Positions 14,938-30,672 of a DNA stretch of 64,000 bases are shown here, one piece after another. The position numbers and the translations under genes are program-made. The notes beneath the pieces were generated by a model. That model was not told the DNA's origin. It ran no database searches and saw nothing but the letters and a program-made list of their open reading frames with translations. How positions within the stretch are numbered: position 1 is the stretch's first letter; the number at the start of each line of letters is the position of its first letter. Source of the stretch: an uncultured virus (IMG/VR IMGVR_UViG_3300024327_000658) (lineage: Duplodnaviria > Heunggongvirae > Uroviricota > Caudoviricetes); IMG/VR virus record IMGVR_UViG_3300024327_000658; one strand, given 5' to 3'.

Positions 14938-14946
14938 GACTTAGCC

Positions 14947-15662: not shown

Positions 15663-15668
15663 TTAACA

Positions 15669-15917
15669 TTAGTCCGAATGTGCTATTTTTGTCGCTTGAC
15701 CCGTGAAGGTTATGCTATAAGCGGCATCTTTATTAACTTTATGTATTCCTACAGGAAGTTTAATTGTTCCTTTAGACTCCCATGCCGCACCATTTAATCC
15801 AAGACCCTGTACTTCTACAACTCCAGCAGTTTCTATGTTACACGCAACCGAAGTCGCTGAACCTATTGTATTATTTGCTGGATCTGTTACTAAAGTTCCA
15901 AGTATTTTATAAGCCAT
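15669..15917 (-). CDS. Hypothetical protein (possibly virion-associated)
   Basis: 82-aa beta-rich ORF in the head operon. Confidence 0.6.
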   Translation of the reverse strand: MAYKILGTLVTDPANNTIGSATSVACNIETAGVVEVQGLGLNGAAWESKGTIKLPVGIHKVNKDAAYSITFTGQATKIAHSD

Positions 15918-15920
15918 TAA

Positions 15921-16499
15921 TTACTCTCCTCTGCTTCTAGAAAAAGAAACCATGTTCCAAAAATCTTTCTTACTTTCAAATAGTTTTTTAGAAAACTCTT
16001 CTTTATTTTTTTCATTTAATCTTTTATATGTTTCGTATAAAATTTTTGCATCATCAGGATCAACAATTACTTGAATATCATCTTTTAAACTTATTTTATG
16101 AGATCTTTGTTCTTTATAAATTTGTTTAAGCAATGGAATTAAATCATTAATATGATGAACATCTTCAATCATATCTGCATCATCATATTCATATTCTTCA
16201 TATGGATTATCTTCTGAACCATGTTCCATTTCATAATCAAGATAATATTTTACAGAACTTAAATTAGAACATGCTTTTGAAATTTTATCTTGTACCCATG
16301 TTTCTAATTCAACTTGATCATCAAGCATTTCAAAAAGGTCCTTACTGTATTTATGCACTTTATATAAACTTTGTTTAGCCAGTCTTCCTTCAAAATCATC
16401 ATATTTCATTTTCATATGAGGAAATTCATGAGAAATGTTTACAGAATGTTCTTTTATTTCTTTTTTAGCTACTGATGATAAATCTTTAAATGTTTTCAT
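15921..16499 (-). CDS. Hypothetical head-operon protein
   Basis: MKTFKD start typical of T4-like late small proteins; LETWVQDKISKA motif; follows a late promoter. Confidence 0.65.
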   Translation of the reverse strand: MKTFKDLSSVAKKEIKEHSVNISHEFPHMKMKYDDFEGRLAKQSLYKVHKYSKDLFEMLDDQVELETWVQDKISKACSNLSSVKYYLDYEMEHGSEDNPYEEYEYDDADMIEDVHHINDLIPLLKQIYKEQRSHKISLKDDIQVIVDPDDAKILYETYKRLNEKNKEEFSKKLFESKKDFWNMVSFSRSRGE

Positions 16500-16533
16500 A
16501 ACCCCTTGGCATTAAATTGTAATATCTAATTTA

Positions 16534-16541
16534 TATTTATA
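16534..16541 (-). promoter_or_regulatory. T4-type late promoter TATAAATA
   Basis: Exact consensus at the downstream boundary of the insertion, restarting the head genes. Confidence 0.82.
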
Positions 16542-16559
16542 TAATCCATGTCCTTTGTG

Positions 16560-16946
16560 TTAAATCATTTTTCCTAAAATCATGCCAAAGTCATTAGGTA
16601 AATGGTAAATTATATTTTTTTCATCTAAAAGTGTTTTAACTTGATCATATATGGATTCATCAAAATCAAAATACCACATATAATCTTCTGCCCATTGCCC
16701 AGCACATGAAACCAAAGAAAGCAATGTTGAATTATTAGCAGTGTGTTTATATTCATTTTTAACATATCCAGATGTAGTAGGATCAAAAGTGCATATTAAC
16801 GATGATGTTTGTAAATGTATTTTATGAAAGTCTGTTAAATCTGGAACAGGTTCAATATCACAATCCAATACAAATTCATTATCAACTATTGTTAATGTTG
16901 CTTCTATCTCTATTCCGCTCTCTGTTAAAGGCATATTCCGCTCCAA
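16560..16946 (-). CDS. Hypothetical protein (last gene of the island)
   Basis: 128-aa ORF overlapping the upstream gene. Confidence 0.6.
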   Translation of the reverse strand: MERNMPLTESGIEIEATLTIVDNEFVLDCDIEPVPDLTDFHKIHLQTSSLICTFDPTTSGYVKNEYKHTANNSTLLSLVSCAGQWAEDYMWYFDFDESIYDQVKTLLDEKNIIYHLPNDFGMILGKMI

Positions 16947-17512
16947 AAATCATCCCAAATAAGTTTATCTGCTGAATCATAAGGTCTAAACCATTTATCC
17001 CCAACATGCATTTTTTTAACACCATCAAATGGAAGTTCGACCCAAAATAATAAGCGAGGTTTCCATTCTGGATTTAATTTCCAATTTTCCCAATGAAGAA
17101 CACTACCTAAAAACGAATCCATTAATAAATCGTCACCTAAATACAAATAATTTATAATTTTACTGCCTAATTTTCTTAACAAAAGAGGATTTTCTAAAAT
17201 AACAAAAACAGGTAGTCCATAAGCAGAATCAGGAAGTTCATCTAATGATTGCTCGTTAAATGTATGTATTGTTGCACCTGTTTGTTGTAAATCATTCTTA
17301 ATGGCTCTCATCATCTGAACTGCATGAATTTCATATTGTTCCATATCTAAGTCAGAATTAATATTATTATCAGGAAATAAAGATAAGGATACATTCATAA
17401 GAAAATGATTAATCGCAATATTAGAACCATTAAGATGTGTAGGATATAAATCTTTTTTGAGAGAATTCGTCCAAGCAGTTTTAAATATTGTTCTTCGTTC
17501 TTCGGGAGTCAT
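16925..17512 (-). CDS. Hypothetical protein
   Basis: 195-aa ORF, ATGA-coupled. Confidence 0.65.
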   Translation of the reverse strand: MTPEERRTIFKTAWTNSLKKDLYPTHLNGSNIAINHFLMNVSLSLFPDNNINSDLDMEQYEIHAVQMMRAIKNDLQQTGATIHTFNEQSLDELPDSAYGLPVFVILENPLLLRKLGSKIINYLYLGDDLLMDSFLGSVLHWENWKLNPEWKPRLLFWVELPFDGVKKMHVGDKWFRPYDSADKLIWDDFWSGICL

Positions 17513-18009
17513 AATGATATTCCTTTTCGGTCAAAATATTCCGTTATACTATGCATAAAATCATAAATATATGCCCATTTCATATGAAATTGAGGCCTCC
17601 CCTCCTTACTTTGCTGTAAATATTCCATCACGGAACTATTAGGATCAACAGTAGGATATGATGTATATAAATTTTCAAGAAAAGCATCAAAATGTTCTTG
17701 ACCATATTTCGTTGCTAACGAATTATATCCATTTATTATAGTATTTATTCTCGTAGAATACGAATGAATATGATCAGGTCCAGGATGTAATTGTTTATCG
17801 ATATATGTTCGACCTTCTTCTACGGTATCATCTGTATATTGAGTATCATCTATGATAGTCTCTTTTGTAAATCTAATCTTTGATGTTGAATGAATTAAAC
17901 AATGAAGTTCTATTAATAATGTATCATCATCTAGTTCATCTTCCATTTTTAACTTTGACCACAGAGGAGATGTATCTATAGTCGGAAATTCTTCAGTAAT
18001 TCTTCCCAT
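17509..18009 (-). CDS. Hypothetical protein
   Basis: 166-aa ORF with an AAGGA Shine-Dalgarno. Confidence 0.65.
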   Translation of the reverse strand: MGRITEEFPTIDTSPLWSKLKMEDELDDDTLLIELHCLIHSTSKIRFTKETIIDDTQYTDDTVEEGRTYIDKQLHPGPDHIHSYSTRINTIINGYNSLATKYGQEHFDAFLENLYTSYPTVDPNSSVMEYLQQSKEGRPQFHMKWAYIYDFMHSITEYFDRKGISL

Positions 18010-18018
18010 TTTATATCC

Positions 18019-18912
18019 TTACTTTAATGCTTCCAAAAACCAGTCTATTCGTTTTTCTTCTTCTAAAAGGTATTTAGTAAACGGTTTTGCTATTTTACCA
18101 TATTGGCAACTTTCAATAAAGGGTTTATCTTCTGATAAAATGGTCGGTACAAAGTTTTTCGCACTCGTTTTTATAACGTCCGCCATTCGTTCATCCATAC
18201 CTTCTTTATTAAAATATCCTTCATATACTACTGTTGTTTCATTATGTTTTTCGGGAATAAAATAACCAATAAACGTCACAATATCAGAAATATTTGATAT
18301 AAACAAATTAGGAAATATATAGATATTTTCCCATTTCCATTCATCAATATATTTTTTATATCGTTGAGGTGCTTCTGAAACTATTCGTTCTAATGAATGT
18401 TTTCCATATCTTATTTGTTCTGGAATATGGTCTAATGAAAGAAATGGTTTTAACATATTTTTAGATTCTTTATGTACGTGTTTTACATGCTGGTATTCTA
18501 TAACATTTTCAACAAATAATTTCCAATTTGCGTTAATTTTCAACTCGTAATGAAAAAAATGATTATTGGCTTTATAATTATATTTGCGTAATAAAGAAAT
18601 CATTGAAGGATCGTGTTCACCTACAAACAATAAATTTTTATATCTGTAATGAGGATATTGTTTTGCATGAGACTGGTCTTTACCATGATAACCACATACA
18701 AATTCTTGATTACCATATCCTAGGGGGTGTATTAAGGAAAGTCTATGGTCACAAACATTATCATAAACAGCACCATCTCTAACAACAACTGGGTGTTTTC
18801 CTATAAGAAAACTGTGATAATCATTTTTACGTAATGAACGATACCCAGAATCTACAAACATTCCTTTTAAGAATATTTTTTCTATTTCCTCACTAAATCG
18901 TTGTTTTTCCAT
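18019..18912 (-). CDS. Rieske non-heme iron oxygenase alpha subunit (compact)
   Basis: Rieske motif CDH-x16-CGYH; mononuclear Fe motif NWKLFVENVIEYQHVKHVH; distal EDKPFIESCQ. Confidence 0.88.
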   Translation of the reverse strand: MEKQRFSEEIEKIFLKGMFVDSGYRSLRKNDYHSFLIGKHPVVVRDGAVYDNVCDHRLSLIHPLGYGNQEFVCGYHGKDQSHAKQYPHYRYKNLLFVGEHDPSMISLLRKYNYKANNHFFHYELKINANWKLFVENVIEYQHVKHVHKESKNMLKPFLSLDHIPEQIRYGKHSLERIVSEAPQRYKKYIDEWKWENIYIFPNLFISNISDIVTFIGYFIPEKHNETTVVYEGYFNKEGMDERMADVIKTSAKNFVPTILSEDKPFIESCQYGKIAKPFTKYLLEEEKRIDWFLEALK

Positions 18913-20009
18913 TCTCTTTCAGGGATCATAGGCTTCATAAATTTGTTATAAACCATAGTATCTTCAACACGGGACTGTAAATTAAGAATGTTTCGTATAT
19001 CTTTACGTGTTTCTGTAAATTGTGTTTTATAGGGTTCTTGAGAATAATAGTTATAATCTTCAGGAATTAAATGACAATAATTACATGGTGTACGGTATGC
19101 TACTCGTTCATCTACAGGACCTATTCTATTATGTAAAGTTATAGAATTATCAAAAATACATATATCATTATTTTGCTGATATTTATGGTGATAAATATAT
19201 TCATCTACAAATAATTCTTTGTCTAAATCATCTAAAAACTTAGTTCTCTCTACGGTGCCAGGAGAATAGTGTAGTCCTTTTATTCCTCCAGGAGATGTAA
19301 TGACCAGTGGAAGTTCAATCGGTTCAAACGTTTGATTCCACCGAAATAAATCATCTTGATCTTTGTCAATTTCAGGCGCAGTTTCATAATTCTGATATTT
19401 AAAAATGATGGTCATATCATCTAATTCTCTTTTAAAAGAATCTCTTTGCTTCTCGTACCAAGAAGCAGTAGTAGCAAATCCTGTTGAAGTACCAACCATT
19501 CCTTTTATGCCCATTAAAGCAATTCCTGGATTAAATACAATTGATCCCGGTTCATTAGAGTGCCAAAGCAATTCTCCTTCAGCAAACATTCCTATGGCCT
19601 TTCCGTTTTCTTTTATACCAGATATACGGTGTAGTTGAGATTTCCAAGGAATCTTTTCCCCTATAAATTCATCACCTCCGGCCCCCATCCAAGCTAAATC
19701 TTCTGCATGTTTTCGGTCTTCGTCTTCTATAAGATTACGTTTAAATAGACTATAGAAATTGCTTATTCCCAATTTCTCTTTATATTTTTTTCTAATCCTA
19801 TATCCATCTAAAATAAAAGGATCACCCCAAAGAATCATTTTTCGTTCAAATTCATTAGGATGAATATCAACACCTCTAATGATTGTTACTAAATCAGTAA
19901 GATGGTCTTTTCCTAGTTCTATCCAATCATTATCAGACATTTCTGCTAATGATATATCATCTATAAATCGACCATAATCACCGAGTCCGGGTATTTTACT
20001 AGTTTTCAT
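18882..20009 (-). CDS. TauD/TfdA-family 2OG-Fe(II) dioxygenase
   Basis: GELLWHSNE, T.FA, C-terminal DICIFDNSITLHNR...R.AYR. Confidence 0.8.
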   Translation of the reverse strand: MKTSKIPGLGDYGRFIDDISLAEMSDNDWIELGKDHLTDLVTIIRGVDIHPNEFERKMILWGDPFILDGYRIRKKYKEKLGISNFYSLFKRNLIEDEDRKHAEDLAWMGAGGDEFIGEKIPWKSQLHRISGIKENGKAIGMFAEGELLWHSNEPGSIVFNPGIALMGIKGMVGTSTGFATTASWYEKQRDSFKRELDDMTIIFKYQNYETAPEIDKDQDDLFRWNQTFEPIELPLVITSPGGIKGLHYSPGTVERTKFLDDLDKELFVDEYIYHHKYQQNNDICIFDNSITLHNRIGPVDERVAYRTPCNYCHLIPEDYNYYSQEPYKTQFTETRKDIRNILNLQSRVEDTMVYNKFMKPMIPEREWKNNDLVRK

Positions 20010-20806
20010 TGCTTACTCCGTTCATATTTTTCATTTCCCATATCTTCTGCAATGTCTTTTATTATATCAAATACTAATTTCTGAAGATCAAAATTATACG
20101 TAAAGATAAATTCATAATAATTTTCACCCGGTAATGGTGCAGTTCGTAATAATGCTGGTTTCCAAAATCCAGTATTAAAACTTAACGTAATTCTATTGTT
20201 CGTTTGTAGAAAATTAAAATTTTCATTATCAACCAATTCATTTTTTTCCCAAACTTTATTAATAGCAGTTCTTAAAAGAGCAGTTAAATAATTTAATCCA
20301 TCAATTGAACACGCTGTCCATGTTACATATGCTCTACTCTGTGATGATTCATTAATTAAATGTCCCTCACATGATCCAAAAGTTCTAATACCATCAAACA
20401 CGTTGAAAACATCAACTAACGGCTTAATGCCCGTTTCTATTTCAAAAGTATCATTGGTCACACCTCCTCCCATAGAACCACTAGACAAATCTTCAGTTGG
20501 CAAAAGGTCTAATTCATTAAATAAGGCTATATCTTCAGTAGAATTTATATCTTTCCAATTATAACCAATTTCATATTTTTTAAGAAATTCACTAAAAACA
20601 CTTATTAATAGTTCATATTTTAGATTAGCATGTCCACAAATTAATACATATTCTTTTTTTCTTTTCGCTCGTTCAATGTCTTGATCATTACCGCTAATCT
20701 TATCTACTAATGAAATTAATAACTTATTTAACAGGTCCACTCGAATTTTCGAATCAGGATCATGTACAATAATATAATTCTGTCTCCACGTATTAATTGT
20801 AATCAT
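20006..20806 (-). CDS. Hypothetical protein with SCEGH motif; paralog of 30644..31465
   Basis: IETGIKPLVDVFNVFDGIRTFGSCEGH...AYV.W. Confidence 0.65.
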   Translation of the reverse strand: MITINTWRQNYIIVHDPDSKIRVDLLNKLLISLVDKISGNDQDIERAKRKKEYVLICGHANLKYELLISVFSEFLKKYEIGYNWKDINSTEDIALFNELDLLPTEDLSSGSMGGGVTNDTFEIETGIKPLVDVFNVFDGIRTFGSCEGHLINESSQSRAYVTWTACSIDGLNYLTALLRTAINKVWEKNELVDNENFNFLQTNNRITLSFNTGFWKPALLRTAPLPGENYYEFIFTYNFDLQKLVFDIIKDIAEDMGNEKYERSKQ

Positions 20807-21591
20807 ATTTTTCTCAAAAATTTCTCTATAATAAAAACATTTAAAAAATCTGTCTCATACCATTTATCTGACATTTTCGTATTATATGCACTAGGATCAT
20901 AATGGTGATTATTATGTAACATTGATCCAGTAAAACCAGACAACCATTGCCCGAGTGTATTGTTTGTACTTTTATCTGTAGTTTCAAAATTACGATAGCC
21001 CCACATGTGTCCTATAGTATTAACTAAACCTCCAGTATGAAGTGTTATAATACTAGGTAATGCAAAAAAGAAAACAGGTATTCTCCAATCAATTAATGCA
21101 GTTAAAACAAGTGGTGGAACAACTATAGTCAAATAATTTCTATGTAATAATTTTAAGAACGGATCTTTCACAAGATCAGCATACAGTCTATGTTCATATA
21201 TTTCCTGTCTCCAATTAGTAAACCATACATCAAAAGGACTTAAATAATGTGGCGAATGAGGATCTTCAGGTGTGTCAGATTTCTCATGATGATATCTATG
21301 AAATGCAACCCACGGAAATTGAGTTCCTTGGTATATAAAGATTCCGCATATAGCCATAAATTTATGGGCCCAAGATTTTGCTTTAAAGCTTCTATGCGCA
21401 AAATATCTATGGGCGCCTATTTCTCCTCCTATATGTCGAAACAATATAACTCCTACAAGAGTTAACCACAGCCAGTACCATGAACTATATAACAATCCTA
21501 TTACTGATGCAATATGAAATAAAATCATGAAGCTAAAATATGCTTGCCATGAATTATTATACTTTGAGATAATTTTTAATAAACTTCCCAC
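20803..21591 (-). CDS. Membrane fatty-acid desaturase (Delta9/DesC-like) no. 3
   Basis: His boxes HRYFAH, HRYHH, HNNHH; DPHSP; hydrophobic segments. Confidence 0.92.
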   Translation of the reverse strand: MGSLLKIISKYNNSWQAYFSFMILFHIASVIGLLYSSWYWLWLTLVGVILFRHIGGEIGAHRYFAHRSFKAKSWAHKFMAICGIFIYQGTQFPWVAFHRYHHEKSDTPEDPHSPHYLSPFDVWFTNWRQEIYEHRLYADLVKDPFLKLLHRNYLTIVVPPLVLTALIDWRIPVFFFALPSIITLHTGGLVNTIGHMWGYRNFETTDKSTNNTLGQWLSGFTGSMLHNNHHYDPSAYNTKMSDKWYETDFLNVFIIEKFLRKI

Positions 21592-22294
21592 AATAGTCCC
21601 TTTCTTTTCCTGTTACATTTTCATCCCAATTACTAGGATCTTGATGATGATTATTATGCAATCCACTTCCTAATGTTAAATCATTAACCCACCAATTGTT
21701 TGTACTTTTATCTGTAGTTTCAAAATTACGATAACCCCATTTATGACATACAATATTAACTAATGCCGCGCCATGAATAATTCCTACACTGGGTATACTA
21801 ATTAAAAACACAGGCAATCTCCAATCTATTAATGACAATAGTAAAAAAGTTATACCTATGATATAAAAATAATATTTATGGCTTTTTTTGTATATCGGAT
21901 CTTTTAATAAATCAGCATAGTGTTTTATGGGCAAATTAACTTTCCGCCACAATGTTAACCAAACCCTCCACCAAGAAATAATATGAGGTGAATGGGGATC
22001 TAATTCTTCATCAGAATTCATATGGTGGGCCCTATGCGCTATAGCCCAGGAGATAGGGGAACCATAACAATTAAATATTCCTAATGTTGATAACAAAAAA
22101 TGTCTTATTGGACCTGTCTCAAAAGAGTTATGCGCAACATACCTATGATTACCTATTTCACTTCCAAATTTACCAAACAATAAAAATCCAATAGGAATCC
22201 ATAGATACCACGGCAATGGAGAATATATAATTCCTATTACTGCTAAAATATGATTCAATATCAAAAGTATTCTTACACCTATTTGATGTGTCAT
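21557..22294 (-). CDS. Membrane fatty-acid desaturase (Delta9/DesC-like) no. 2
   Basis: His boxes HRYVAH, HRAHH, HNNHH. The ATG at 22294 (ATGA overlap) is preferred over the track start at 22345. Confidence 0.92.
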   Translation of the reverse strand: MTHQIGVRILLILNHILAVIGIIYSPLPWYLWIPIGFLLFGKFGSEIGNHRYVAHNSFETGPIRHFLLSTLGIFNCYGSPISWAIAHRAHHMNSDEELDPHSPHIISWWRVWLTLWRKVNLPIKHYADLLKDPIYKKSHKYYFYIIGITFLLLSLIDWRLPVFLISIPSVGIIHGAALVNIVCHKWGYRNFETTDKSTNNWWVNDLTLGSGLHNNHHQDPSNWDENVTGKERDYCGKFIKNYLKV

Positions 22295-22563
22295 TTTGAT
22301 AGAAAATCCGCACTCTGTAAAGTTTGTGCTAATTGCTGTTGCCACAAAGTTACATCTCCTGTAACTTTTCCGCGACTTGTTAAATTAAACTGTTCGGATA
22401 AATTATTCAAACAGTCCAATATTATTTCTTCTTTCTTATTTTCTGGTTGACCCGCAGTTGCAATAAGAGCAATCCATTCCTGACATCCACCCGGGTATGA
22501 ACCATAAATCGTATTTTCAAGTGATGTCTTTAATATTTCACTTACTTTTTCTATATTGCCCAT
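22291..22563 (-). CDS. Hypothetical protein (~90 aa)
   Basis: GGAG Shine-Dalgarno before the ATG at 22563; coupled to the desaturase downstream. Confidence 0.55.
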   Translation of the reverse strand: MGNIEKVSEILKTSLENTIYGSYPGGCQEWIALIATAGQPENKKEEIILDCLNNLSEQFNLTSRGKVTGDVTLWQQQLAQTLQSADFLSK

Positions 22564-22564
22564 G

Positions 22565-23341
22565 TTATTCTCCAAAATCATGATAAGTTTGTTTTTCTGT
22601 TATTGATTCTTTCACTCTGATATCGTTCCATTGCTGTTTTGTCATTCCATGTACTTGAGATTCGTGATCTATGTCCATAAACATGATCAAACTATGTCGT
22701 TCTTTTTTTGTTGAATTTGATACCCTATGGGGAGTAGATTTTAATTTATTTTGGGTCCACCACTGCATAAAATCACCACAATTAACTATTATAAAATCAT
22801 CACCAGGATGTTTTATCAAAGTCCATTCGCCATCAATGCATACTTCATATTCTTCTACAGGATCACATACATGCACTAATGTCAATGTTCCGAAATCACA
22901 ATGACTGCCTAATCGATTATTTCCTATTTGATCTTTATAATATTTTACAAATATCAAATCATTACTTGATTTCTCGTGTTTCAGTGTTATTGAATTAGGC
23001 GGCAATTTCATATATTCTTCAATAGCATATAATATATCACACCCAACTTTTATATATTGGCTCCTTATAGTATTTACGCACTCCCAATCATCAGACATAT
23101 TTTTTAGAACAACTCTTTCGTTTGCTTCTCCGGGAAACCTTTTTGAACTTGATCGACCTTCTTCGTACATAGGTAATGTCTTTAAATCCGCCGCTTTTAA
23201 TTTTTCACGTAATTGTTCTAATGATCCTTTCATATCAATAAAAGGATTTACTACTAATAAAAAACCAGTATTTTTAAAACTATCTACAATTGATTTAGAA
23301 TTCCAATCAGACGAATTAAATACTATTGAACTTGGAGCCAT
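22565..23341 (-). CDS. 2OG-Fe(II) oxygenase, isopenicillin-N-synthase-like (DIOX) family
   Basis: GFLLVVN, HCDFGTLT (HxD), NCGDFMQWWT, STPHRV, RHS (RxS). Confidence 0.9.
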   Translation of the reverse strand: MAPSSIVFNSSDWNSKSIVDSFKNTGFLLVVNPFIDMKGSLEQLREKLKAADLKTLPMYEEGRSSSKRFPGEANERVVLKNMSDDWECVNTIRSQYIKVGCDILYAIEEYMKLPPNSITLKHEKSSNDLIFVKYYKDQIGNNRLGSHCDFGTLTLVHVCDPVEEYEVCIDGEWTLIKHPGDDFIIVNCGDFMQWWTQNKLKSTPHRVSNSTKKERHSLIMFMDIDHESQVHGMTKQQWNDIRVKESITEKQTYHDFGE

Positions 23342-24081
23342 TTTATAAACCTTGCGCCGGGATCGATTTCACCAAAACGATATTTATTTTGGTCATTATG
23401 ATGATTCAAGTGCCACCCCTCTCCACCTGTTATCAATGCTATCAATAAATTATTAGAAGGTTCACCATGTCTATGACAATAAGCATTTATAAGACCGTAT
23501 CCGTGATTTGCAAATACAATAGGAAGACAATAACCAAATACTAACAATAAAGGATCTATTAAAAAAAATATTAATATGATTAATGCATGTAATTTAAGAT
23601 AATTATCATAAAACCATTTTAAACTAGAATTTTTACTAAGACTTAACCAATCTTTAAGGTCTTCTCTTTCTGTTGGTATATACCTAAATCCTGCTTGAAA
23701 CCAACCACTTGTATATACCCACCAAAAACCCTTATGTTTCGGACTATGTGGATCTTTCTCTGTATCGACGTATTTATGATGATCCCTGTGAACACCTATC
23801 CATACTAATGCGGGTCCAGGATTTCCGAATAATCCAATAATTTGACTATAAATTTCATACCACTTGCCGATCTTAAAACTATTATGAGTCCAATATCTAT
23901 GGTAGCCACTTGTGCCAGCAGTTATATGAACAAATTGCCACCATATAAAACTATACAATAACATCCACCATTCGCCATAAATTATTGCGGGTATAATAAC
24001 TAAATGACAAAATACATTAATAGACCAAATACTATACCTGTTTAATGTAGCATTTTTTTCTAATGAGCCCATATATAACAA
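23323..24081 (-). CDS. Membrane fatty-acid desaturase (Delta9/DesC-like) no. 1
   Basis: His boxes HRYWTH, HRDHH, GEGWHLNHH; DPHSP. The likely start is the ATG at 24072. Confidence 0.92.
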   Translation of the reverse strand: MLYMGSLEKNATLNRYSIWSINVFCHLVIIPAIIYGEWWMLLYSFIWWQFVHITAGTSGYHRYWTHNSFKIGKWYEIYSQIIGLFGNPGPALVWIGVHRDHHKYVDTEKDPHSPKHKGFWWVYTSGWFQAGFRYIPTEREDLKDWLSLSKNSSLKWFYDNYLKLHALIILIFFLIDPLLLVFGYCLPIVFANHGYGLINAYCHRHGEPSNNLLIALITGGEGWHLNHHNDQNKYRFGEIDPGARFIKWLQVQ

Positions 24082-24434
24082 ACTCCTACTACATATTCAT
24101 CTGTATCAGACAATGATATTCTTACATCTTGTCTTGGGCCTTTGTATTCTTTCGATACTGAAGCATGTACAACAGGAAATCGAACCCCCCTGCTTGTCAA
24201 ATGCATGTAACTAACATCTAATCTTAAATAAGGTGAAGCTATTGCTTTAGAATATGCTTCCTTAACACACCAACATTTAGTTAAATATCTAGCAGTCATA
24301 GGACTGGGCGCATTTCTTTTTTCAATATCTGTTAATATTTTATTAACAAATTTGTCTCCCCATTTATCATATATCTTTTGAATAGGTTCGATTGTTTGTA
24401 AATCAATACCTATTAAATTTTCTCTAGCAGACAT
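24060..24434 (-). CDS. acpS: Holo-ACP synthase (AcpS-type phosphopantetheinyl transferase)
   Basis: IGIDL, F..KILT..E, WCVKEAYSKA, ISLSD; 124 aa, the size of AcpS. Confidence 0.85.
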   Translation of the reverse strand: MSARENLIGIDLQTIEPIQKIYDKWGDKFVNKILTDIEKRNAPSPMTARYLTKCWCVKEAYSKAIASPYLRLDVSYMHLTSRGVRFPVVHASVSKEYKGPRQDVRISLSDTDEYVVGVCYIWAH

Positions 24435-25441
24435 AAATCAACTTGAAATCCTGGTCCATAAGAAATCATAACCAGTTTTCCTTCTTTCATAAAATCATTT
24501 TGTAAGGTTTTTATTACACTTGTGGCAGACATATTACCAAATAATCTAAACATCTCAAAAGAAGAATCTAATGCACCGTCAGGTAAATTTAATCCTTCTG
24601 CAGTATTTTGCAAAACAACTTTTCCACCAGGATGACATATCCAATGATCAATATCATGACCTTTAATAAATTCTTCTACTTTTGGTAATAACGCATCAGC
24701 GGCTTTTGGTAGTTCCTGCAATTTAGTAGATTCTACATTATATAATAATCCTGCACTTGTTCCTTCAAGAGTAATAAAATCTTCTGTATCAGGTAAAATA
24801 TGAGATGCATGTTTAAGTACTTTCCAACCTCCGTGTTCATAATCATCACCAGCCATTAAAATAGCACTTACACCATCACCGAAAATAGTAATACCAAATA
24901 CTGTAGTAAGAGAACGATCTTCAGGATTTAAATTCATTGAAACTAAATCATTAGTGAGACAAATTACTACTTTAGTTGGGTTTGCTTTTAAAAATTCATC
25001 TGCAATTTGTATCACATGCGTACCACCATTACACGCTAAACCAAACATGGGTATTTTAATTACAGAATCAGGAAAATCAAAATGACTAAGCAATTTATGT
25101 GGTACAGTAGGAATTCCTACACCTGTCATTGTTGTAGATGTTATCATACACACATCTTCGGGAACAAGAAGGTCCAATTCCAATACTGCTTCTAATGATA
25201 ACTTATGTACTACTTCATTAAATGTTTTATTTTTTTGCGTAAAAGTTTGAGACTGTTCCCGCATTGTCTCAATAGGATAACAAGTATGTCTATATTCAAC
25301 TCCTGTCAATGGCATATATCTGTCAAATACTCTACCCGAATAACCTTTTTCTTGCCACCATTCTTTCAGCTTTACTTTGAAGTCATCATTATGTAATCGA
25401 TTTTCAGGATGTTTAGTTACTATTTGTAAAATTTTACTCAT
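24413..25441 (-). CDS. Type III polyketide synthase (chalcone-synthase fold)
   Basis: Catalytic triad Cys (GLACNGG), His (WICHPGG), Asn (FGNMSATS); also FGDG and SYGPGF. Confidence 0.9.
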   Translation of the reverse strand: MSKILQIVTKHPENRLHNDDFKVKLKEWWQEKGYSGRVFDRYMPLTGVEYRHTCYPIETMREQSQTFTQKNKTFNEVVHKLSLEAVLELDLLVPEDVCMITSTTMTGVGIPTVPHKLLSHFDFPDSVIKIPMFGLACNGGTHVIQIADEFLKANPTKVVICLTNDLVSMNLNPEDRSLTTVFGITIFGDGVSAILMAGDDYEHGGWKVLKHASHILPDTEDFITLEGTSAGLLYNVESTKLQELPKAADALLPKVEEFIKGHDIDHWICHPGGKVVLQNTAEGLNLPDGALDSSFEMFRLFGNMSATSVIKTLQNDFMKEGKLVMISYGPGFQVDLCLLEKI

Positions 25442-26043
25442 TCTGCCTCTATTGTCATTTCTCTAATACGACCACTAAAATTAATCATATGATCTATACA
25501 TTCTACACATTGTTCAGGAGAAAGCATATTTGGTTCTAGCTTATGATCATATACTCGATTTACGAGAGTTGCCAATCTTGTTGTTCTTGGAGTTTCCACC
25601 CAACCAGGTCTTAGTAGTGAAATTTTACATCCGTTATGTTTTGCAGTCTTTTCATAACATTCTAGATTAATTTTATCAAGTGATATTTTACCTGCTGTAT
25701 AACGACTATGGCCTATAGGATAATCATCTGTATCTTTTTCAGATGCGATAGAACTAACAGAGATTATATGTTTATTTGGATCATCTTTCCATAAATGAAA
25801 AACGAATAAAAGTGCTTGTGTTTGAGCCCACCATTTGTAGTCATTATATGCATTGTTTATGAATATATCACCTTTAGGATCAAACCATTCTTTAATATGT
25901 TCTATATCATGTTTATTATATCGCCTACTATGACCTTCTACCTCAATTAAGTCTTTGTATTTTGCGAGATAATTTCCATCATATTTTTCACTTAGTGCTT
26001 TTCCTATACCGGAAGTCACACCAGTTATAATCATTTTACGCAT
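25438..26043 (-). CDS. Short-chain dehydrogenase/reductase
   Basis: ITGVTSGIG, FINNA, catalytic YTAGK, PGWVET. Confidence 0.88.
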   Translation of the reverse strand: MRKMIITGVTSGIGKALSEKYDGNYLAKYKDLIEVEGHSRRYNKHDIEHIKEWFDPKGDIFINNAYNDYKWWAQTQALLFVFHLWKDDPNKHIISVSSIASEKDTDDYPIGHSRYTAGKISLDKINLECYEKTAKHNGCKISLLRPGWVETPRTTRLATLVNRVYDHKLEPNMLSPEQCVECIDHMINFSGRIREMTIEAE

Positions 26044-26287
26044 TTGCTTTTCGCTCTACCATATTATATAAATCGTTTATTGTTGTTGCTTTTTGAAACT
26101 CTTCTGCATCTAAGGCAATATTAAAAGTATCTTCAATAATTATCATTGTTTCTAAAATATGAATAGAATCAATTTCTAAATCTAAAGCAATTTTACTATC
26201 GGACTTTATCTCTGGAAAATCAATACCCGCGGCCGCTTCTTCAAACGCGGATTTACATTTTTCTTCAATTTCTTGTCGTGTGTACAT
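26036..26287 (-). CDS. acpP: Acyl carrier protein
   Basis: 83 aa, acidic; DLEIDSIHILE (Ppant Ser), IEDTFNI, TINDL. Confidence 0.88.
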   Translation of the reverse strand: MYTRQEIEEKCKSAFEEAAAGIDFPEIKSDSKIALDLEIDSIHILETMIIIEDTFNIALDAEEFQKATTINDLYNMVERKANA

Positions 26288-27047
26288 CGTATAAATCCTC
26301 TTCAGTTATTTGTTCAATGGGTTCAGCAATATAATTAAGGTCACTATGTTTTCCTGTTAATCCGTAAGCATCTGAATGATGACATAATTTATAAGACCCC
26401 TCTTTATATCCTGCTATGCTAATTAATAAATTAAACCGAGCTGTTAAACCGGCATTAATTACAGTATGATTAATGCAACTATCATCTTGATAAGAACTCC
26501 CATCTGCTGGTAAATAATATGATTGATCGTCAATAACAAAACGACATCCTGCATTAACTTCAAGGGGTATATGTATATTTTCAAAACTATCTTGATGCCA
26601 ATTTATAGTAGTTAAAGGGTTTAACATCGTTATTCTAACTCGGTCTATCTCATAATATATAGACAACTTTTTATAAATGTTATGAAATTCTGTATCTAAA
26701 TAATCTTCATTAAAAATAGTATAATCTTTACGTGTTTCAAATCTTTTTAATTTTCTATTAAAATTTGTCCCATCATGTATTATGCGCTTTAATATATTGT
26801 ACTTATAACCAGAAGAAGATGAAAAAACTGATGGTCTTTGAGGACAAAAACTTCTTACAGAATCATATAGTCTTTGTTCTGGTAAACAGTCTTTTGAATG
26901 TAAAAGTCCCAATACATAAGCATCATTAAAGTCGTCTCTTGTATTGAGATCCCATGGAGCGAATAAAGATTTTAGCGGCTGAAGTTCTTTTTGTAAACGA
27001 TCTATATCAAATTCCCAAGGTAATTTTTTTACATAAATTGGTCTCAT
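26265..27047 (-). CDS. Aspartyl/asparaginyl beta-hydroxylase-like 2OG-Fe(II) oxygenase
   Basis: RVRITML.P, WHQD, IHIPL, HTVINAG..ARFNLL. Confidence 0.75.
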   Translation of the reverse strand: MRPIYVKKLPWEFDIDRLQKELQPLKSLFAPWDLNTRDDFNDAYVLGLLHSKDCLPEQRLYDSVRSFCPQRPSVFSSSSGYKYNILKRIIHDGTNFNRKLKRFETRKDYTIFNEDYLDTEFHNIYKKLSIYYEIDRVRITMLNPLTTINWHQDSFENIHIPLEVNAGCRFVIDDQSYYLPADGSSYQDDSCINHTVINAGLTARFNLLISIAGYKEGSYKLCHHSDAYGLTGKHSDLNYIAEPIEQITEEDLYDVHTTRN

Positions 27048-27781
27048 TGTTGATGTATATCAAATTCAAGCATTTCACAAGCAGTTTCTAATTCAGTAAT
27101 AGTATCCAAATCTGTTTCCTGGAGCTGACTAAATGTTTCTCTAATATATGCCAGAAGATCCGTTTGTTGTACAGAAGTTAAATTTGCTAAAACATATTTA
27201 TTTTCTTCATCCATAGCATCATATCTTATCGCAGAATCATAATGATTTTTATATATGATCATCATTTTTAAAAAATAGGAATATTTTGAATACGATAAAC
27301 TTAATAATTTATCCTGAAGTGATTTAGTATCAGGATCAAGCCATGAACCGGTTTCTAATTCATCTGCTGACGGACCCCTTGCGGAACCATCATCATGTGT
27401 TCCGGGATTATCTGATATCCATGATAACCAATTATCACGCATAAATGATGTACAATATTTTGTACTAGCATTTAATCTTTCATCAGTAAACCATGATATA
27501 TCTTGTTGCGATAAAAAAGTTCTACTGAAAACGGGTTCTGCATCTTCGAAGATATTAGACGGGTTTAAAATGCATCCTTGATACTTAAACATATAAGTTC
27601 TATCTAACCATTGATCTTCTGTAATACCACATTCCAAATACACATCTTTATTGGTTATTAAAATATCAACTATATCATTAAACCTAGCAATATCATCACT
27701 CTCCATTAGAACCATAATTTGTCGGTCAGCCTTTAATTGTTTCCAGCTAGGATTACTTTTAAATACTTCGGCTTCAGCCAT
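27044..27781 (-). CDS. Hypothetical protein
   Basis: 245-aa acidic ORF, coupled at both ends. Confidence 0.65.
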   Translation of the reverse strand: MAEAEVFKSNPSWKQLKADRQIMVLMESDDIARFNDIVDILITNKDVYLECGITEDQWLDRTYMFKYQGCILNPSNIFEDAEPVFSRTFLSQQDISWFTDERLNASTKYCTSFMRDNWLSWISDNPGTHDDGSARGPSADELETGSWLDPDTKSLQDKLLSLSYSKYSYFLKMMIIYKNHYDSAIRYDAMDEENKYVLANLTSVQQTDLLAYIRETFSQLQETDLDTITELETACEMLEFDIHQQ

Positions 27782-27991
27782 TTAAATGCTTTCCATTCTA
27801 CGTGTATATCTATCTTTTAGCTCATTAAAATTAGATGTCAAATTAGCAGAAATAAATATAGACTCTGTTGAGTCTAAAAAGTTCAATATTTTTTGATATC
27901 CGTTTTTTGTGAAATCTTCACTTTCTATTTTATTTATTTTAAATAAAATAGTTTCAAACGATAGGTTTTTTAAGTTTACAATTTTACTCAT
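27782..27991 (-). CDS. Hypothetical protein
   Basis: 69-aa ORF abutting or overlapping both neighbours. Confidence 0.5.
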   Translation of the reverse strand: MSKIVNLKNLSFETILFKINKIESEDFTKNGYQKILNFLDSTESIFISANLTSNFNELKDRYTRRMESI

Positions 27992-28902
27992 TTTAGTATA
28001 CCATCTTCTCCAGGCATTACTACAGGTAGACTTGGATCAAGCGCATATTCATTTGGGAGATTTACAGTATCGTCACAATATGGAAGTTTTCCTTCAGTTG
28101 ATAATATATTCCCGTATTCATCAGCTTTTTCATTTTTTTCTCCAGTAATTTCTTCTATAGGATCGTCAATGGGTCTATTGTTTTGGCCGGCAAGTCGAAC
28201 ATCAACTATGCCCTGACCAGGAGTGTCTGCACCCTGTACTGCTTGAGGATGTTTTGCGGGAGGATATGGCCCTCCCGCATGTAAATCCAAAGAACCAACT
28301 CCATCTTGACCATGCGCATTTCCTTGAGGTTTAAATATTTGCCCTCCAACACCTTCATTAACAAAAGCATCAACATCAATAATCGCATCATCAAGAGTTT
28401 TTTTACTAAGGTCATCACGAGCAGTGTCTAGATATTCCATATAGTCTTTAGTGTTGCCTATAGCCTTAATGAGATGTTCTTTACATTGATTATCACAATA
28501 TTTATGAAAGTCAGAAGCAAACTGGCAATTACAAATCATTCCTTTTACATATTCTGCCTGTTCACCTGCTTCTGTTGTATAAGTAGGAGAGTCGTGTTCA
28601 ACCATTCCTTCCAATTCTCTCAGAGTGTATTCAACAAGCTCATCAACCTTTTTGTCTTGATTTTCATCTACTTGAATATTTTGATGAGCAGTTGGCAATC
28701 CACCGGCCGGCTGACCTGTATCGGCCGTTAAAGTTTGACTATTCATATCCGTCAACATCTGTTGCTTTTGCAACGCACTTAATCCCAAATCTAATGACTT
28801 TAGTAATGTCATACCTATTGGCTGTGTTATTTCATCATCCAATAGTGGTGATAATGCGGCAATAGCGGCATTTGTGCATTCAATAACTTTATTTTCACTC
28901 AT
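27988..28902 (-). CDS. Hypothetical acidic protein with a central Cys/His cluster
   Basis: ICNCQFASDFHKYCDNQCKEH; Pro/Gly-rich C-terminal half. Confidence 0.65.
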   Translation of the reverse strand: MSENKVIECTNAAIAALSPLLDDEITQPIGMTLLKSLDLGLSALQKQQMLTDMNSQTLTADTGQPAGGLPTAHQNIQVDENQDKKVDELVEYTLRELEGMVEHDSPTYTTEAGEQAEYVKGMICNCQFASDFHKYCDNQCKEHLIKAIGNTKDYMEYLDTARDDLSKKTLDDAIIDVDAFVNEGVGGQIFKPQGNAHGQDGVGSLDLHAGGPYPPAKHPQAVQGADTPGQGIVDVRLAGQNNRPIDDPIEEITGEKNEKADEYGNILSTEGKLPYCDDTVNLPNEYALDPSLPVVMPGEDGILK

Positions 28903-30247
28903 GATTTATCTCTCTGGGGAAATTTCTTTTTTGGGTTTCAAGCATTTCTTCTGCTATGTGATCTAAACCAGAACCCTGGCCAGAGGTATCTATTATTCCC
29001 AATCTATCAATAGCAGTTGTCGGATGACCGGTTCTAGGCAATATTCTATTTTTTTCTTCTTTATCTCCTGCATCAGGAAGATGTTTCATTCCTTTTCCTA
29101 CTCTCACTAATCCATTTTGTATTGATGCCAATCCTTGTTCTGTATAATAAAATCTATGATCTTTACGTTCTCCACAAGAATTACACATATCACAAAACAT
29201 GTGGCATACAGGAGAAAATAATTTATTTTTTATCCATTGTTTCCGTAAATAATCTATCTGTTCTTTTAATAACCAATTAATTTTTGCTTTATCTTCGGGA
29301 CTATCTTTACCCGCTAAACTTTCATCTATAGATGTAACAACTCTATCCGGTCCATATGTCTTGACTATACGCAAAATATCCTTAGCAAAACATTGTACAT
29401 TTGATCTGTGAATAGTATACCTGGCCCTCCATTTAATTTGGTCTTGGGGTGGCATATTGGAATTATAATCTGAAATATTTTTAAATGCTTTTAATACATC
29501 TGGAGTAGAATCTTTACCAGAATAATATACCCTATCTAAATTTCCTGCACCATCAAAACTAATATCAAAAGAAACCCGTTGTTTAATTCCTGGATTAGAT
29601 TCCAAAAAAGTAATAACACTATTAAAAAATTTTGGCTTACTTAAAAGTATACCATTAGTTGTTATATTGAAATGTAAATTGTGCTTCTGAGAATATGCAT
29701 AATTCATAAGATATTCACAATTTTTCCATTCTAACATCGGTTCACCACCAAAAATACAAAATAAAGTTTGTTCATCTGGTCTATCGGTTTTATTAATATC
29801 ATCTACAAGTTTTTTCAACAATGGTGGTTCGGGTAAATGTTTTGGTCGATTTTCTAAATGTTCATAGCAATAAGAACAATTTAAATTACATTGACTTGTC
29901 ATATAAAATAAATGTATACCTCCACCGTGTGCAACTCTTGTATTTTCGTTTTCACCATGAGTAAAATGTCTATCCATAATTTCATTAACATTGGCTTCTG
30001 CTAAATCAAGTCTTCCTTCTTTTAGTGCTTTAACACGGTCATAATGTTCATCTTTTGATACGCTTTCTACATGTTGTTTTACTACTTGATTCAATTCACG
30101 ATCAGTTAGAGTTAATAATTTTTTAACATCATGTTTTTCATATTTACATACACCTTCTCCTGTTTTCAATCCTCGTTCATAATCAATAACACCATCAAGA
30201 GATCCCATGGTGGGTAAAACTTTTTTAGAGCGTGTTAGTGTTTTCAC
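28895..30247 (-). CDS. Radical SAM enzyme no. 3 (short C-terminal Cys cluster)
   Basis: CNLNCSYC, IFGGEPML, ITTNG, ISFDG; C-terminal CHMFCDMCNSC. Confidence 0.9.
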   Translation of the reverse strand: MKTLTRSKKVLPTMGSLDGVIDYERGLKTGEGVCKYEKHDVKKLLTLTDRELNQVVKQHVESVSKDEHYDRVKALKEGRLDLAEANVNEIMDRHFTHGENENTRVAHGGGIHLFYMTSQCNLNCSYCYEHLENRPKHLPEPPLLKKLVDDINKTDRPDEQTLFCIFGGEPMLEWKNCEYLMNYAYSQKHNLHFNITTNGILLSKPKFFNSVITFLESNPGIKQRVSFDISFDGAGNLDRVYYSGKDSTPDVLKAFKNISDYNSNMPPQDQIKWRARYTIHRSNVQCFAKDILRIVKTYGPDRVVTSIDESLAGKDSPEDKAKINWLLKEQIDYLRKQWIKNKLFSPVCHMFCDMCNSCGERKDHRFYYTEQGLASIQNGLVRVGKGMKHLPDAGDKEEKNRILPRTGHPTTAIDRLGIIDTSGQGSGLDHIAEEMLETQKRNFPREINHE

Positions 30248-30672
30248 TATTTTCCCCTTACAACTGGTCTTTCGTCCAGTTTTCTGCGGATTTGTTCTTC
30301 TGGATTTTGTTTTAGAATATATGCTATGTTTTTCATAAGTCTAGGAAAATCAATGTTATAATTAAATAAATGTGACTTTATTCTTGTACCATCTGATTCA
30401 GGATTCCAAGAATCATAAAGTAAATTTTTATCTCTCGCTTGTTTTTTTGATGGGGTGTCTTCTAGCTGTACTTGATTAATAAGAGTTTGAATATCTCCGT
30501 CTTTTGCGGCCCTTGCCGATTTTTCATATCGCTCTACTGATTTTTTATTTTTATTATTTATTACAGCCTCTTGTCCTGAAATCGCAGGATGCCATCCTTC
30601 TTCACGATCTAGATCATTTAGTTCTTCTGGAGTTCCGTGTATCTTATTTTTTTCCATGTAACAATTTTCCAA
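30247..30672 (-). CDS. Hypothetical protein
   Basis: ORF between radical SAM genes; the start may be the ATG at 30657. Confidence 0.55.
   Translation of the reverse strand: MENCYMEKNKIHGTPEELNDLDREEGWHPAISGQEAVINNKNKKSVERYEKSARAAKDGDIQTLINQVQLEDTPSKKQARDKNLLYDSWNPESDGTRIKSHLFNYNIDFPRLMKNIAYILKQNPEEQIRRKLDERPVVRGK

Follow-up and report, generated by a model that had tools for sequence, protein, structure and literature searches.

A 64,000-nucleotide stretch of the uncultured virus genome IMGVR_UViG_3300024327_000658 (Caudoviricetes), referred to here as the window, carries on its minus strand at positions 20803–26287 a block of overlapping genes for an acyl carrier protein (ACP), a short-chain dehydrogenase/reductase (SDR), a type III polyketide synthase (PKS)-like condensing enzyme, an AcpS-type 4'-phosphopantetheinyl transferase and three membrane desaturases. 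We tentatively read the block, at somewhat less than an even chance, as one conserved phage module in which an ACP-bound acyl chain would be desaturated and passed to the PKS, giving an alk(en)ylresorcinol or alk(en)ylpyrone that would then be oxidised.

The phage context of the PKS block is certain, since genes for gp23, gp22, gp21, portal, sheath, terminase and baseplate proteins flank it. Besides the major capsid protein gp23, scaffold gp22, prohead protease gp21 and portal, the window encodes tail tube, sheath, both terminase subunits, neck and baseplate proteins, as well as UvsW, UvsY, a gp55-like late sigma factor and a peptide deformylase. This T4-type gene set identifies the window as part of a T4-like myovirus. 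The closest DNA match of the capsid gene is Pelagibacter phage HTVC008M (73.5% over 66% of the gene), and the portal protein is at most 54% identical to that of any GenBank phage, the top matches being Synechococcus myophages. Comparison of the capsid DNA and the portal protein with GenBank phages revealed no close cultured relative.

The condensing enzyme and its carrier system

The PKS gene (24413–25441, minus strand), a core member of the block, encodes a protein of 342 amino acids (aa), which matches Chal_sti_synt_N at 36.2 bits and Chal_sti_synt_C at 33.7 bits, modest margins over the cut-offs of 27 bits. Its top solved relative is Pks11 of Mycobacterium tuberculosis (4jao, E = 1.4e-29), and all 60 Protein Data Bank matches listed are type III PKSs. 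Residues Cys137, His270 and Asn303 align with the catalytic residues of Pks11. The triad is retained in 22 of the 23 phage copies; Cys137 and Asn303 are invariant over phage and cellular sequences, and His270 is nearly so. With both Pfam halves above their cut-offs and the triad aligned, the original prediction of a type III PKS with an intact Cys-His-Asn triad is borne out. A His-to-Gln replacement was discarded as a lineage feature, being confined to a single database sequence, of which a near-identical locus copy has His.

The enzyme shares with FabH and other ketoacyl-ACP synthases of type III (KAS III) the thiolase fold, the Cys-His-Asn triad, the ACP and FabG-like neighbours and, in the related locus L022, a neighbouring FabZ. 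It differs from them in its signature motifs, having WICHPGG, FGNMSATS and YGPGF where Escherichia coli FabH has HQAN, GNTS and GGGF; the HPGG, GNMS and GPGF motifs are diagnostic for type III PKSs as opposed to FabH. Phe187, at the position of Phe215 of chalcone synthase, is invariant, and the residue at what we take to be the chalcone synthase Phe265 position is Leu, as in Pks11. Among NCBIfam models, DpgA scores 70 bits, and fabH (TIGR00747) 38.6 bits against a cut-off of 292.1, with the remaining KAS III models lower still. The FabH-type Pfam family ACP_syn_III matches at 29.3 bits, above its cut-off of 24. In BLASTP the protein is 30% identical to a cellular type III PKS (locus L029, E = 2.6e-45) versus 22% to E. 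coli FabH (E = 9e-16). Profile scores and signature motifs thus support a type III PKS-like, rather than FabH-like, condensing enzyme.

We built a phylogeny of 73 sequences, comprising 19 phage PKSs, 52 cellular type III PKSs, the PKS of Streptomyces phage ZL12 and a single FabH as outgroup. The 19 phage PKSs group together (SH-aLRT 97), with a stem of 1.75, as sister to the 52 cellular sequences plus ZL12. Isolation of this clade is also seen in database searches. Among 5.8 billion cluster representatives, the top 20 matches are 67–100% identical to the phage PKS and the next at most 30%, this next-best group consisting mostly of Flavobacteriia proteins annotated as alkylresorcinol/alkylpyrone synthase. 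When 1.84 billion representatives were searched exhaustively, no more than 12 matches had E ≤ 1e-30; the phage clade was represented by one full-length protein and four fragments, all others being at most 33% identical; in 15 billion proteins, too, the next ones are at most 33% identical. A search of 185,579 species genomes with a phage-only alignment and two peptide patterns found no relative of the PKS and gave no clue to the host.

The original prediction had called a PKS with its own carrier and activating enzyme unexpected in a phage, and the GenBank phages agree with it: in 50,697 records the sole type III PKS is that of phage ZL12. This protein, pZL12.100, is RppA-like, 24% identical to the window PKS over 68% of the query, and groups within the cellular type III PKSs in the tree. 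It is encoded by a lone gene, with no ACP, AcpS or desaturase genes within 4 kb. The same 50,697 records contain no match to the phage ACP.

The ACP gene (26036–26287, minus strand; 83 aa; core) matches PF00550 at E = 5.9e-7 and 30.1 bits, above the cut-off of 20.8. The serine of its DSI motif aligns with the serine of the DSL motif of E. coli AcpP, a position that we take to be Ser36. The phage ACP is 29% identical both to AcpP and to an ACP of the ftp type, so that this comparison does not discriminate between them. Its ratio of non-synonymous to synonymous divergence (dN/dS) is 0.05–0.22. AcpS (24060–24434, minus strand; 124 aa; core) matches PF01648 at E = 1.2e-10 and 41.8 bits (cut-off 25), as well as NF011253, holo-ACP synthase (E = 2.6e-12), the scores for holo-ACP synthase models remaining below the equivalog cut-offs. 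A private AcpS next to a divergent ACP suggests that the latter is a dedicated carrier.

Between ACP and PKS lies the gene of a compact, FabG-like SDR (25438–26043, minus strand; 201 aa; core). It falls just under the PF00106 cut-off (26.3 versus 26.6 bits) and matches PHROG 3142, 'FabG-like', at E = 8.4e-9. Aligned with E. coli FabG, it has matching TGxxxGIG, NNA and PG motifs, Ser98 and Tyr115-x3-Lys119; Gly12, Gly14, Asn63-Asn64-Ala65, Ser97, Ser98, Tyr115 and Lys119 are invariant across nine orthologues. Its closest solved relative is the FabG 2ph3, at only E = 2.3e-3. A fold search gave 43 matches at E ≤ 1e-3, of which the 37 listed are all SDR-fold proteins, with TM-scores of only 0.35–0.52 that lend weak support, as the search used a low-confidence model (pLDDT 51.7). 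The SDR is the most constrained gene of the module: in three comparisons dN is 0–0.002 at dS of 0.11–0.23.

Conservation of the module and its desaturase arrays

Searches with the PKS yielded 5 viral and 19 metagenome loci, among which L001–L003, L006 and L023 are duplicates of the window's own phage and L008 duplicates L004. PKS identity over these loci is 66–100%, and all of them lie in the same T4-like context. In a scripted synteny comparison, ACP and SDR genes are found upstream of the PKS gene in 12/12 loci covering both sides, and AcpS with at least one desaturase downstream in 15/15 loci covering that side. The order ACP-SDR-PKS-AcpS is fixed even at a PKS identity of 66% and dS above 1. 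All module genes are under purifying selection, with dN/dS of 0.00–0.45 for every gene against five relatives.

The seven genes named in the original prediction are all present on the minus strand, as confirmed by ORF (open reading frame) calls, Pfam and NCBIfam matches and motifs. Its gene list was incomplete, having overlooked a 2-oxoglutarate (2OG)-Fe(II) oxygenase gene and a 96-aa ORF, which bring to nine the co-directional ORFs that overlap start to stop in 20803–26287. With these overlapping ORFs, their conservation in related contigs and the flanking T4-type structural genes, the description of the block as a contiguous, self-contained module in a phage holds. The 2OG-Fe(II) oxygenase (22565–23341, minus strand; 258 aa) matches PF03171 at E = 1.7e-15 and 57.6 bits, and its solved relatives are small-molecule 2OG oxygenases of the isopenicillin N synthase/ACC-oxidase kind (best E = 1.6e-8). 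It is a frequent member of the block, with orthologues (49–100% identity) in the window, L005, L007, L009, L010, L014, L016, L017, L019 and L022. The 96-aa ORF (22291–22581, minus strand) has orthologues of 51–74% identity in L005, L007, L009, L010, L014 and L017 and dN/dS of 0.28–0.45; no family was found for it in Pfam, NCBIfam or PHROGs.

Other parts vary among loci, namely the number of desaturases and the presence of methyltransferase, FabZ, Rieske, TauD and 2OG genes and of a 266-aa protein. A 278-aa methyltransferase is encoded between SDR and PKS in L009, L010, L011 and L013. It scores 210.7 bits against the model of phthiotriol/phenolphthiotriol dimycocerosate methyltransferase and 192.3 bits against Mtf2, both below the equivalog cut-offs. 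The FabZ of L022 exceeds both of its equivalog cut-offs (166.1 versus 113 and 157.8 versus 155.15 bits).

Desaturase A (23323–24081, minus strand; 252 aa; optional) matches PF00487 at E = 3.2e-9 and 37.4 bits and has the histidine boxes HRYWTH, HRDHH and HLNHH. Desaturase B (21557–22345, minus strand; 262 aa; core) matches the same family at E = 5.2e-13 and 49.8 bits, has HRYVAH, HRAHH and HNNHH, and shows dN/dS of 0.11–0.32. Desaturase C (20803–21591, minus strand; 262 aa; core), with HRYFAH, HRYHH and HNNHH, gave no Pfam match; it matches NF049918 at E = 1.6e-23 and mammalian SCD1 (4ymk) at E = 7.4e-15, and the phage desaturases belong to this SCD1-like family. The histidine boxes are intact in all three proteins. 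All module loci extending over the relevant position have both desaturases B and C, and desaturase A is missing from L009, L010, L011, L013, L016 and L021. These six loci have two desaturases each, the window and L004 three, L017 and L019 five, and L005 seven, of which five are DesC-like. The seven tandem paralogues of L005 occupy its positions 12151–17685 (plus strand), and three of them have QNNHH, with Gln for the first His of the third box. A Gln substitution of this type is typical of front-end desaturases.

Stand-alone desaturases of marine phages, such as those of cyanophages and the FA_desaturase of Pelagibacter phage Mosig, belong to the same short SCD1-like family; desaturase C is 30% identical to the Mosig protein, and no cyanophage record matched it at E ≤ 1e-3. 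As a control, viral contigs were scanned with a desaturase alignment; this gave at least 615 matching stretches, from which we inspected the best 80 loci. All six of these loci with three or more desaturases carry PKS and AcpS, as against none of the 74 with one or two (68 single-copy, 6 two-copy) carrying PKS or ACP. The stand-alone phage desaturases thus differ from the array of three in the window in lacking ACP, AcpS and PKS neighbours. In 69 of the 74 loci the query-matching copy is DesA-like, at 29–53% identity, and of the three window desaturases it is A that most resembles the stand-alone phage genes. One of the 74, L045, begins inside an apparently truncated module. Given these counts (6/6 versus 0/74), single desaturases are ordinary phage genes and the arrays belong to the PKS block, with which they are exclusively associated.

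These observations also bear on an explanation that we consider very unlikely, according to which the region is a collection of separate auxiliary genes brought together by insertion at a common hot spot separating gp20 from gp21. Desaturases would then remodel host membranes, ACP, AcpS and SDR would boost host fatty-acid synthesis, and the PKS would make an unrelated polyketide. Desaturases of the same family are indeed common alone (68 of the 80 loci) or in pairs (6 of the 80), all without PKS or ACP, and lipid desaturases of cyanophages are described in an earlier report (PMC5776448). Conserved structural genes enclose the region, itself a variable island, and TauD and Asp/Asn hydroxylase-like genes, described below, occur in phages without PKS. 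Against this explanation stand the restriction of arrays of three or more desaturases to the PKS block, the presence of desaturases B and C in all module loci covering their position, the gene order fixed across divergent relatives, and the private AcpS and divergent ACP that point to a dedicated carrier.

The stretch is widespread in marine data. Near-identical copies of the 5.5-kb region (shared sampled words 0.98–0.99) occur in 14 marine DNA runs from at least 10 studies and in six metatranscriptome runs. Contigs from RNA libraries of four studies cover the region at 99–100% identity, two of them, X15 and X16, covering 30/30 bins. DNA carry-over into these libraries is possible, and the matches were not counted as evidence of expression. 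A DNA search with 20803–26287 found no match among GenBank phages, and a full-text literature search, covering main texts and only a minority of papers in subscription journals, returned no description of a phage PKS-ACP-desaturase module. The accessible part of a pelagimyophage survey names radical SAM cassettes and a stearoyl-CoA desaturase, with no PKS or ACP among the genes it mentions (PMC7029224).

Flanking genes and the variable island

The module lies in an island of about 20 kb between the prohead protease (14293–14937) and portal (38471–40153) genes, and gene overlap is continuous, with no intergenic gaps, from 34965 down to 16560. All long ORFs of the window are on the minus strand. 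GC content is 0.26–0.37 across the window, except for a collagen-like fibre gene, and 0.30–0.33 in the PKS module. As the module matches the remainder of the window in GC content and its PKS clade stands apart from cellular proteins, it is not a recent pick-up. Scans for expression signals gave chance numbers of sigma-70-like promoters (109 sites versus 118.7 expected) and terminator-like sites (7 versus 6.9), and the T4 late-promoter motif TATAAATA is not enriched in the window (10 versus 14.4 expected), with no copy inside the island (16.6–35 kb). Four minus-strand copies of TATAAATA, at 14282–14289, 16534–16541, 43201–43208 and 61161–61168, lie directly upstream of the scaffold gene, a 192-aa ORF, the sheath gene and a baseplate gene, respectively. 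No tRNA genes were found in the window.

Downstream of desaturase C, several oxidative enzymes follow. The Rieske-type oxygenase (18019–18912, minus strand; 297 aa) has a ring-hydroxylating catalytic domain (PF00848, E = 5.3e-16, 59.6 bits); PF00355 scores 19 bits, below the cut-off, and CxH and CxxH motifs are present in the sequence. It is a frequent member, its gene following the desaturases in seven loci (window, L004, L009, L011, L014, L016 and L021). A 2OG dioxygenase of the TauD/TfdA family (18882–20009, minus strand; 375 aa; PF02668, E = 1.3e-8; PHROG 24590, E = 3.5e-65) is of uncertain membership: its gene lies between ACP and SDR in L005, and homologues of 34–37% identity occur in Prochlorococcus phages with no PKS match. 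Sequence searches against solved structures gave nothing useful for the Rieske and TauD proteins.

The 266-aa protein encoded at 20006–20806 (minus strand) is conserved and optional, with 15 homologues of 57–100% identity, all in the phage clade. It is present in the window, L005, L014 and L017 and never shares a locus with the 278-aa methyltransferase. This exclusion, confined to the synteny set, is the sole basis for supposing that the protein replaces the methyltransferase, and the idea was set aside. Leads to S-adenosylmethionine (SAM)-binding families (DUF6919, MTHFR_C and TYW3) were likewise rejected, at atlas scores of 0.80–0.83, below the level that was counted, and the AlphaFold model of the protein (pLDDT 52.6) was left unused. 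For a 245-aa protein, a protein-atlas search gave nothing.

Upstream of the ACP gene lie genes for an Asp/Asn hydroxylase-like cupin, three uncharacterised proteins and three radical SAM/SPASM proteins. The cupin (26265–27047, minus strand; 260 aa; PF05118, E = 1.2e-7), which resembles Asp/Asn beta-hydroxylases, overlaps the start of the ACP gene by 23 bases. Its membership in the module is doubtful, as homologues are also found beside stand-alone desaturases in many viral loci without PKS. An Asp/Asn hydroxylase-like family is described as core to pelagimyophages in the survey cited above (PMC7029224). The radical SAM/SPASM proteins (28895–30247, 31479–32864 and 32800–34350, minus strand) are interleaved with conserved proteins of 69–304 aa (27044–34965), and most related phages have this set upstream of ACP. 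Their top models are peptide maturases, with PapB reaching 135.5 bits, far below the cut-offs. For the radical SAM protein at 31479–32864, the only one searched, the nearest GenBank phages are Campylobacter T4-like phages, at 33–35% identity. In four lineages the genes directly upstream of ACP are swapped for genes of large proteins of 233–554 aa (L011 3496–8285, L012 99–2992, L013 34–3161 and L004 3581–6360). None of these proteins has a Pfam match at E ≤ 0.01, and the three largest have no NCBIfam match either. One of them could be an unrecognised loader of the ACP.

The position of the radical SAM genes raises another explanation, which we regard as the most improbable of those considered, that a lipid made on the ACP is moved to a virion component or to a peptide or protein processed by the three radical SAM/SPASM maturases encoded just upstream (28895–34350). 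The upstream set, including the conserved genes of 27044–28902, accompanies the ACP gene in most lineages, the radical SAM proteins match peptide-maturase models best, and the whole island is located among virion genes. All these model scores are far below their cut-offs, however, and the segment between the radical SAM genes and ACP is swapped in L004, L011, L012 and L013 with the PKS block unchanged. Related radical SAM genes occur without PKS in the Campylobacter phages, and no acyltransferase, condensation domain or GNAT was found in the scanned ORFs of the window.

Several further genes were noted in the window and its relatives. The ORF at 35145–38444 (minus strand) encodes a 1099-aa collagen-repeat protein, with nine stretches matching PF01391 and matches to phage tail-fibre families, and has a GC content of 0.46 versus about 0.31 in the rest of the window. 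The sole clear plus-strand gene (43257–43679), between the tail sheath and large terminase genes, encodes an HNH endonuclease (PF13392), probably of the homing type. In the baseplate/fibre region, the ORF at 52507–59370 (minus strand) encodes a protein of 2287 aa with DUF4815 and a match to PHROG 358 (1018 bits). Asparagine-synthase-like genes occur in the phage group, at 471–1313 in the window and at 17761–19215 in L017; the one in L017 includes a glutamine amidotransferase domain and directly follows the PKS module.

Proposed pathway, related systems and significance

The cellular systems most similar to the phage module are ftp/srs/hid-type operons (ftp of Myxococcus xanthus, srsABC of Streptomyces griseus and the hidABC-like operons of cyanobacteria and planctomycetes), in which a type III PKS gene stands beside genes of a methyltransferase, an oxygenase and, in ftp, a dedicated ACP. 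The role of the fatty acyl-AMP ligase (FAAL) and ACP of ftp was reportedly treated by Hayashi et al. in 2011. The top cellular match of the phage PKS, P0124 (31% identity, E = 2.2e-38), led us to 11 bacterial loci. L029, from a Myxococcales metagenome-assembled genome, and L030, from Candidatus Uabimicrobium, encode, by Pfam, a PKS, an ICMT methyltransferase, an ACP, an AMP-binding enzyme and an FAD monooxygenase; L028 encodes an FAD monooxygenase, a PKS and an ICMT/YceI fusion, and L031 a PKS, ICMT and YceI. Judged by this gene content, the best-scoring cellular relatives of the phage PKS are in ftp-type operons. In the nine bacterial PKS loci examined by BLASTP, no homologues of other phage genes were found within 8 kb. 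Another protein of the representative library, P0121 (4818 aa), contains 12 separate stretches matching the type III PKS and appears to be a multi-copy fusion.

Like the ftp-type operons, the phage module combines PKS and ACP in one operon, with only the SDR between them, includes oxygenases and, in four relatives, has a methyltransferase. The differences are equally clear. Neither a FAAL, in the scanned ORFs, nor a methyltransferase or FAD monooxygenase is found in the window, whose oxygenases are instead of the Rieske, 2OG and TauD kinds. The methyltransferase of the phage relatives is a class I enzyme resembling phthiocerol dimycocerosate (PDIM) methyltransferase and Mtf2, unlike the ICMT of the bacterial operons. 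The phage module adds AcpS, SDR and two to seven membrane desaturases, its carrier is a T4-like phage of lytic type, and its PKS, 25–30% identical to ftp-type PKSs, does not nest in their clade in the tree. The alkylresorcinols made by SrsA and FtpA undergo oxidation to alkylquinones, and operons combining methyltransferase, oxidoreductase and PKS genes are widespread (PMC10896814).

The second comparison concerns polyyne cassettes (JamABC and the cay, pgn, cepacin and collimonin clusters). As described in two reports, bacterial polyyne clusters have a designated ACP and a desaturase triad, with FAAL loading the chain and a thioesterase releasing it (PMC9828172, PMC8406139). The phage block likewise has an ACP with three desaturases, up to seven in relatives. 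It differs in that FAAL, thioesterase and rubredoxin were not found among the window ORFs scanned, the block having a type III PKS, SDR and AcpS instead. The likeness drawn here is one of gene content. A third system, the sorgoleone pathway of Sorghum, comprises DES2/DES3, ARS1/2, OMT3 and CYP71AM1; there, desaturases provide a polyunsaturated starter, which a type III PKS converts to an alkenylresorcinol, and O-methylation and ring hydroxylation lead to a benzoquinone lipid (PMC5887931). Its chemical logic is the same as in our preferred reading, with no shared membership: it is a plant pathway using acyl-CoA rather than a dedicated ACP, with unlinked genes and a P450 hydroxylase, and kinship extends only to the family level. 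By analogy, the phage block looks like a fusion of polyyne and sorgoleone logics.

The sequence data show the gene content, catalytic motifs, conservation, selection and the confinement of desaturase arrays to the PKS block; from these and the comparisons above we infer the order of the steps, the hand-off from ACP to PKS, the class of the product and any benefit to the phage. Phage AcpS would convert phage ACP to its holo form, and a fatty chain would be built or placed on it, likeliest by the type II fatty-acid synthase of the host aided by the FabG-like SDR and, in one lineage, by phage FabZ as well. Desaturases B and C, together with A and further paralogues in some lineages, may then add several unsaturations. 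The PKS would accept the acyl starter from the ACP, add malonyl units and release the product by cyclisation as an alk(en)ylresorcinol, resorcylic acid or pyrone; with no thioesterase in the scanned ORFs, PKS-mediated release is the economical reading. The Rieske, 2OG and TauD oxygenases may oxidise this product to a hydroxyquinol or quinone-like lipid, which some relatives may additionally O-methylate. The interpretation given with the original prediction is partly supported: its unsaturated, oxidised phenolic lipid is a plausible product in view of the ftp-type relatives, the lipid O-methyltransferase beside the PKS in four loci, the Rieske gene after the block in seven and the missing thioesterase. 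The roles it suggested for this lipid, in altering host membranes, deterring grazers or competitors or decorating the virion, would be speculative.

Several points weigh against this reading. A Pfam scan of 62 window ORFs detected no FAAL or other AMP-binding enzyme, acyltransferase, thioesterase or rubredoxin, and five related viral fragments (13–33% complete) gave no AMP-binding or rubredoxin match; in one relative the loader search covered 64 kb of a contig of about 204 kb. Thus, a loading enzyme is lacking from the ORFs covered, and the analogy to the cellular ftp-type operons, which have FAAL, is incomplete. The window ORFs and the five fragments likewise yielded no electron carrier that could serve the desaturases or the Rieske enzyme. 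Textbook alkylresorcinol synthesis has no step for a FabG-like SDR, which is universal here, and the FabZ of L022 shows 3-hydroxyacyl-ACP chemistry in at least one lineage. Since TauD and Asp/Asn hydroxylase-like genes occur in phages without PKS, the tailoring genes may include some neighbours unrelated to the module. Furthermore, in the phylogeny suggested along with the original prediction, the phage clade is monophyletic and lies outside all 52 cellular type III PKSs sampled, as their long-stemmed sister, rather than nested among them. The single FabH outgroup joins the base of the phage clade, where long branches meet, and long-branch attraction is possible. Finally, the class of product cannot be read from sequence.

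Several of these points would fit the main rival scheme, unlikely in our view though deserving serious attention, in which the PKS acts as a FabH-like priming enzyme, much as in the refuting case named with the original prediction. It would condense a host acyl-CoA once with malonyl-(phage ACP) loaded by host FabD, after which the SDR would reduce the 3-keto group, FabZ would dehydrate the product in one lineage, the methyltransferase would O-methylate the hydroxyl in others, and the desaturases would act on the ACP-bound chain. Instead of an aromatic lipid, the outcome would be a fatty acid that is polyunsaturated or polyacetylenic and hydroxylated or methoxylated. Such a scheme needs no loader, in keeping with the searches of the window ORFs and the five fragments, and gives the SDR, universal, FabG-like and the most constrained gene of the module, a place. 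It also accommodates the FabZ of L022, above both equivalog cut-offs, the methyltransferase of L009, which resembles enzymes methylating a lipid hydroxyl or carboxyl, the ACP_syn_III match and the location of the phage clade outside the sampled cellular type III PKSs, on the branch leading to FabH. It is at odds with the signature motifs, which are those of type III PKSs, and with the fabH score, far below its cut-off and lower than that of DpgA. To our knowledge, no type III PKS uses malonyl-ACP or leaves its product on the carrier. A release enzyme would be required, of which none was found in the scanned ORFs, and a Rieske ring-hydroxylating oxygenase is harder to place.

Our preferred reading, synthesis of an alk(en)ylresorcinol or pyrone from a desaturated ACP-bound chain, can be extended to a fuller picture, in which marine T4-like phages of a cosmopolitan lytic lineage produce their own specialised lipid, polyunsaturated, perhaps acetylenic and of the phenolic or quinone kind, by means of a phage ACP, a PKS branch and two to seven desaturases. 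Inside infected cells this lipid would serve as redox carrier, membrane agent or chemical defence. We regard this picture as possible but rather doubtful.

As a rule, the auxiliary genes of a phage provide isolated enzymes that patch the metabolism of the host. This phage keeps a carrier, its activator, a condensing enzyme, a reductase and a desaturase family together under purifying selection, across lineages with saturated synonymous sites. ACP-dependent type III PKS operons and ACP-desaturase cassettes were already known; in this case they are found in, and evolve within, a phage lineage of lytic type. The module is a clean test case for the question of whether a type III PKS can serve as a FabH-like primer on a carrier. 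If the reading as a polyunsaturated phenolic or quinone lipid is true, it would make available, for study and engineering, a compact type III PKS system that depends on a carrier and whose desaturases can be swapped, and the number of desaturases would tune the chemistry between lineages. Infected ocean cells would then be a source of specialised lipids, and lytic phages would count among the carriers of natural-product pathways, this being the first polyketide pathway of a lytic phage.

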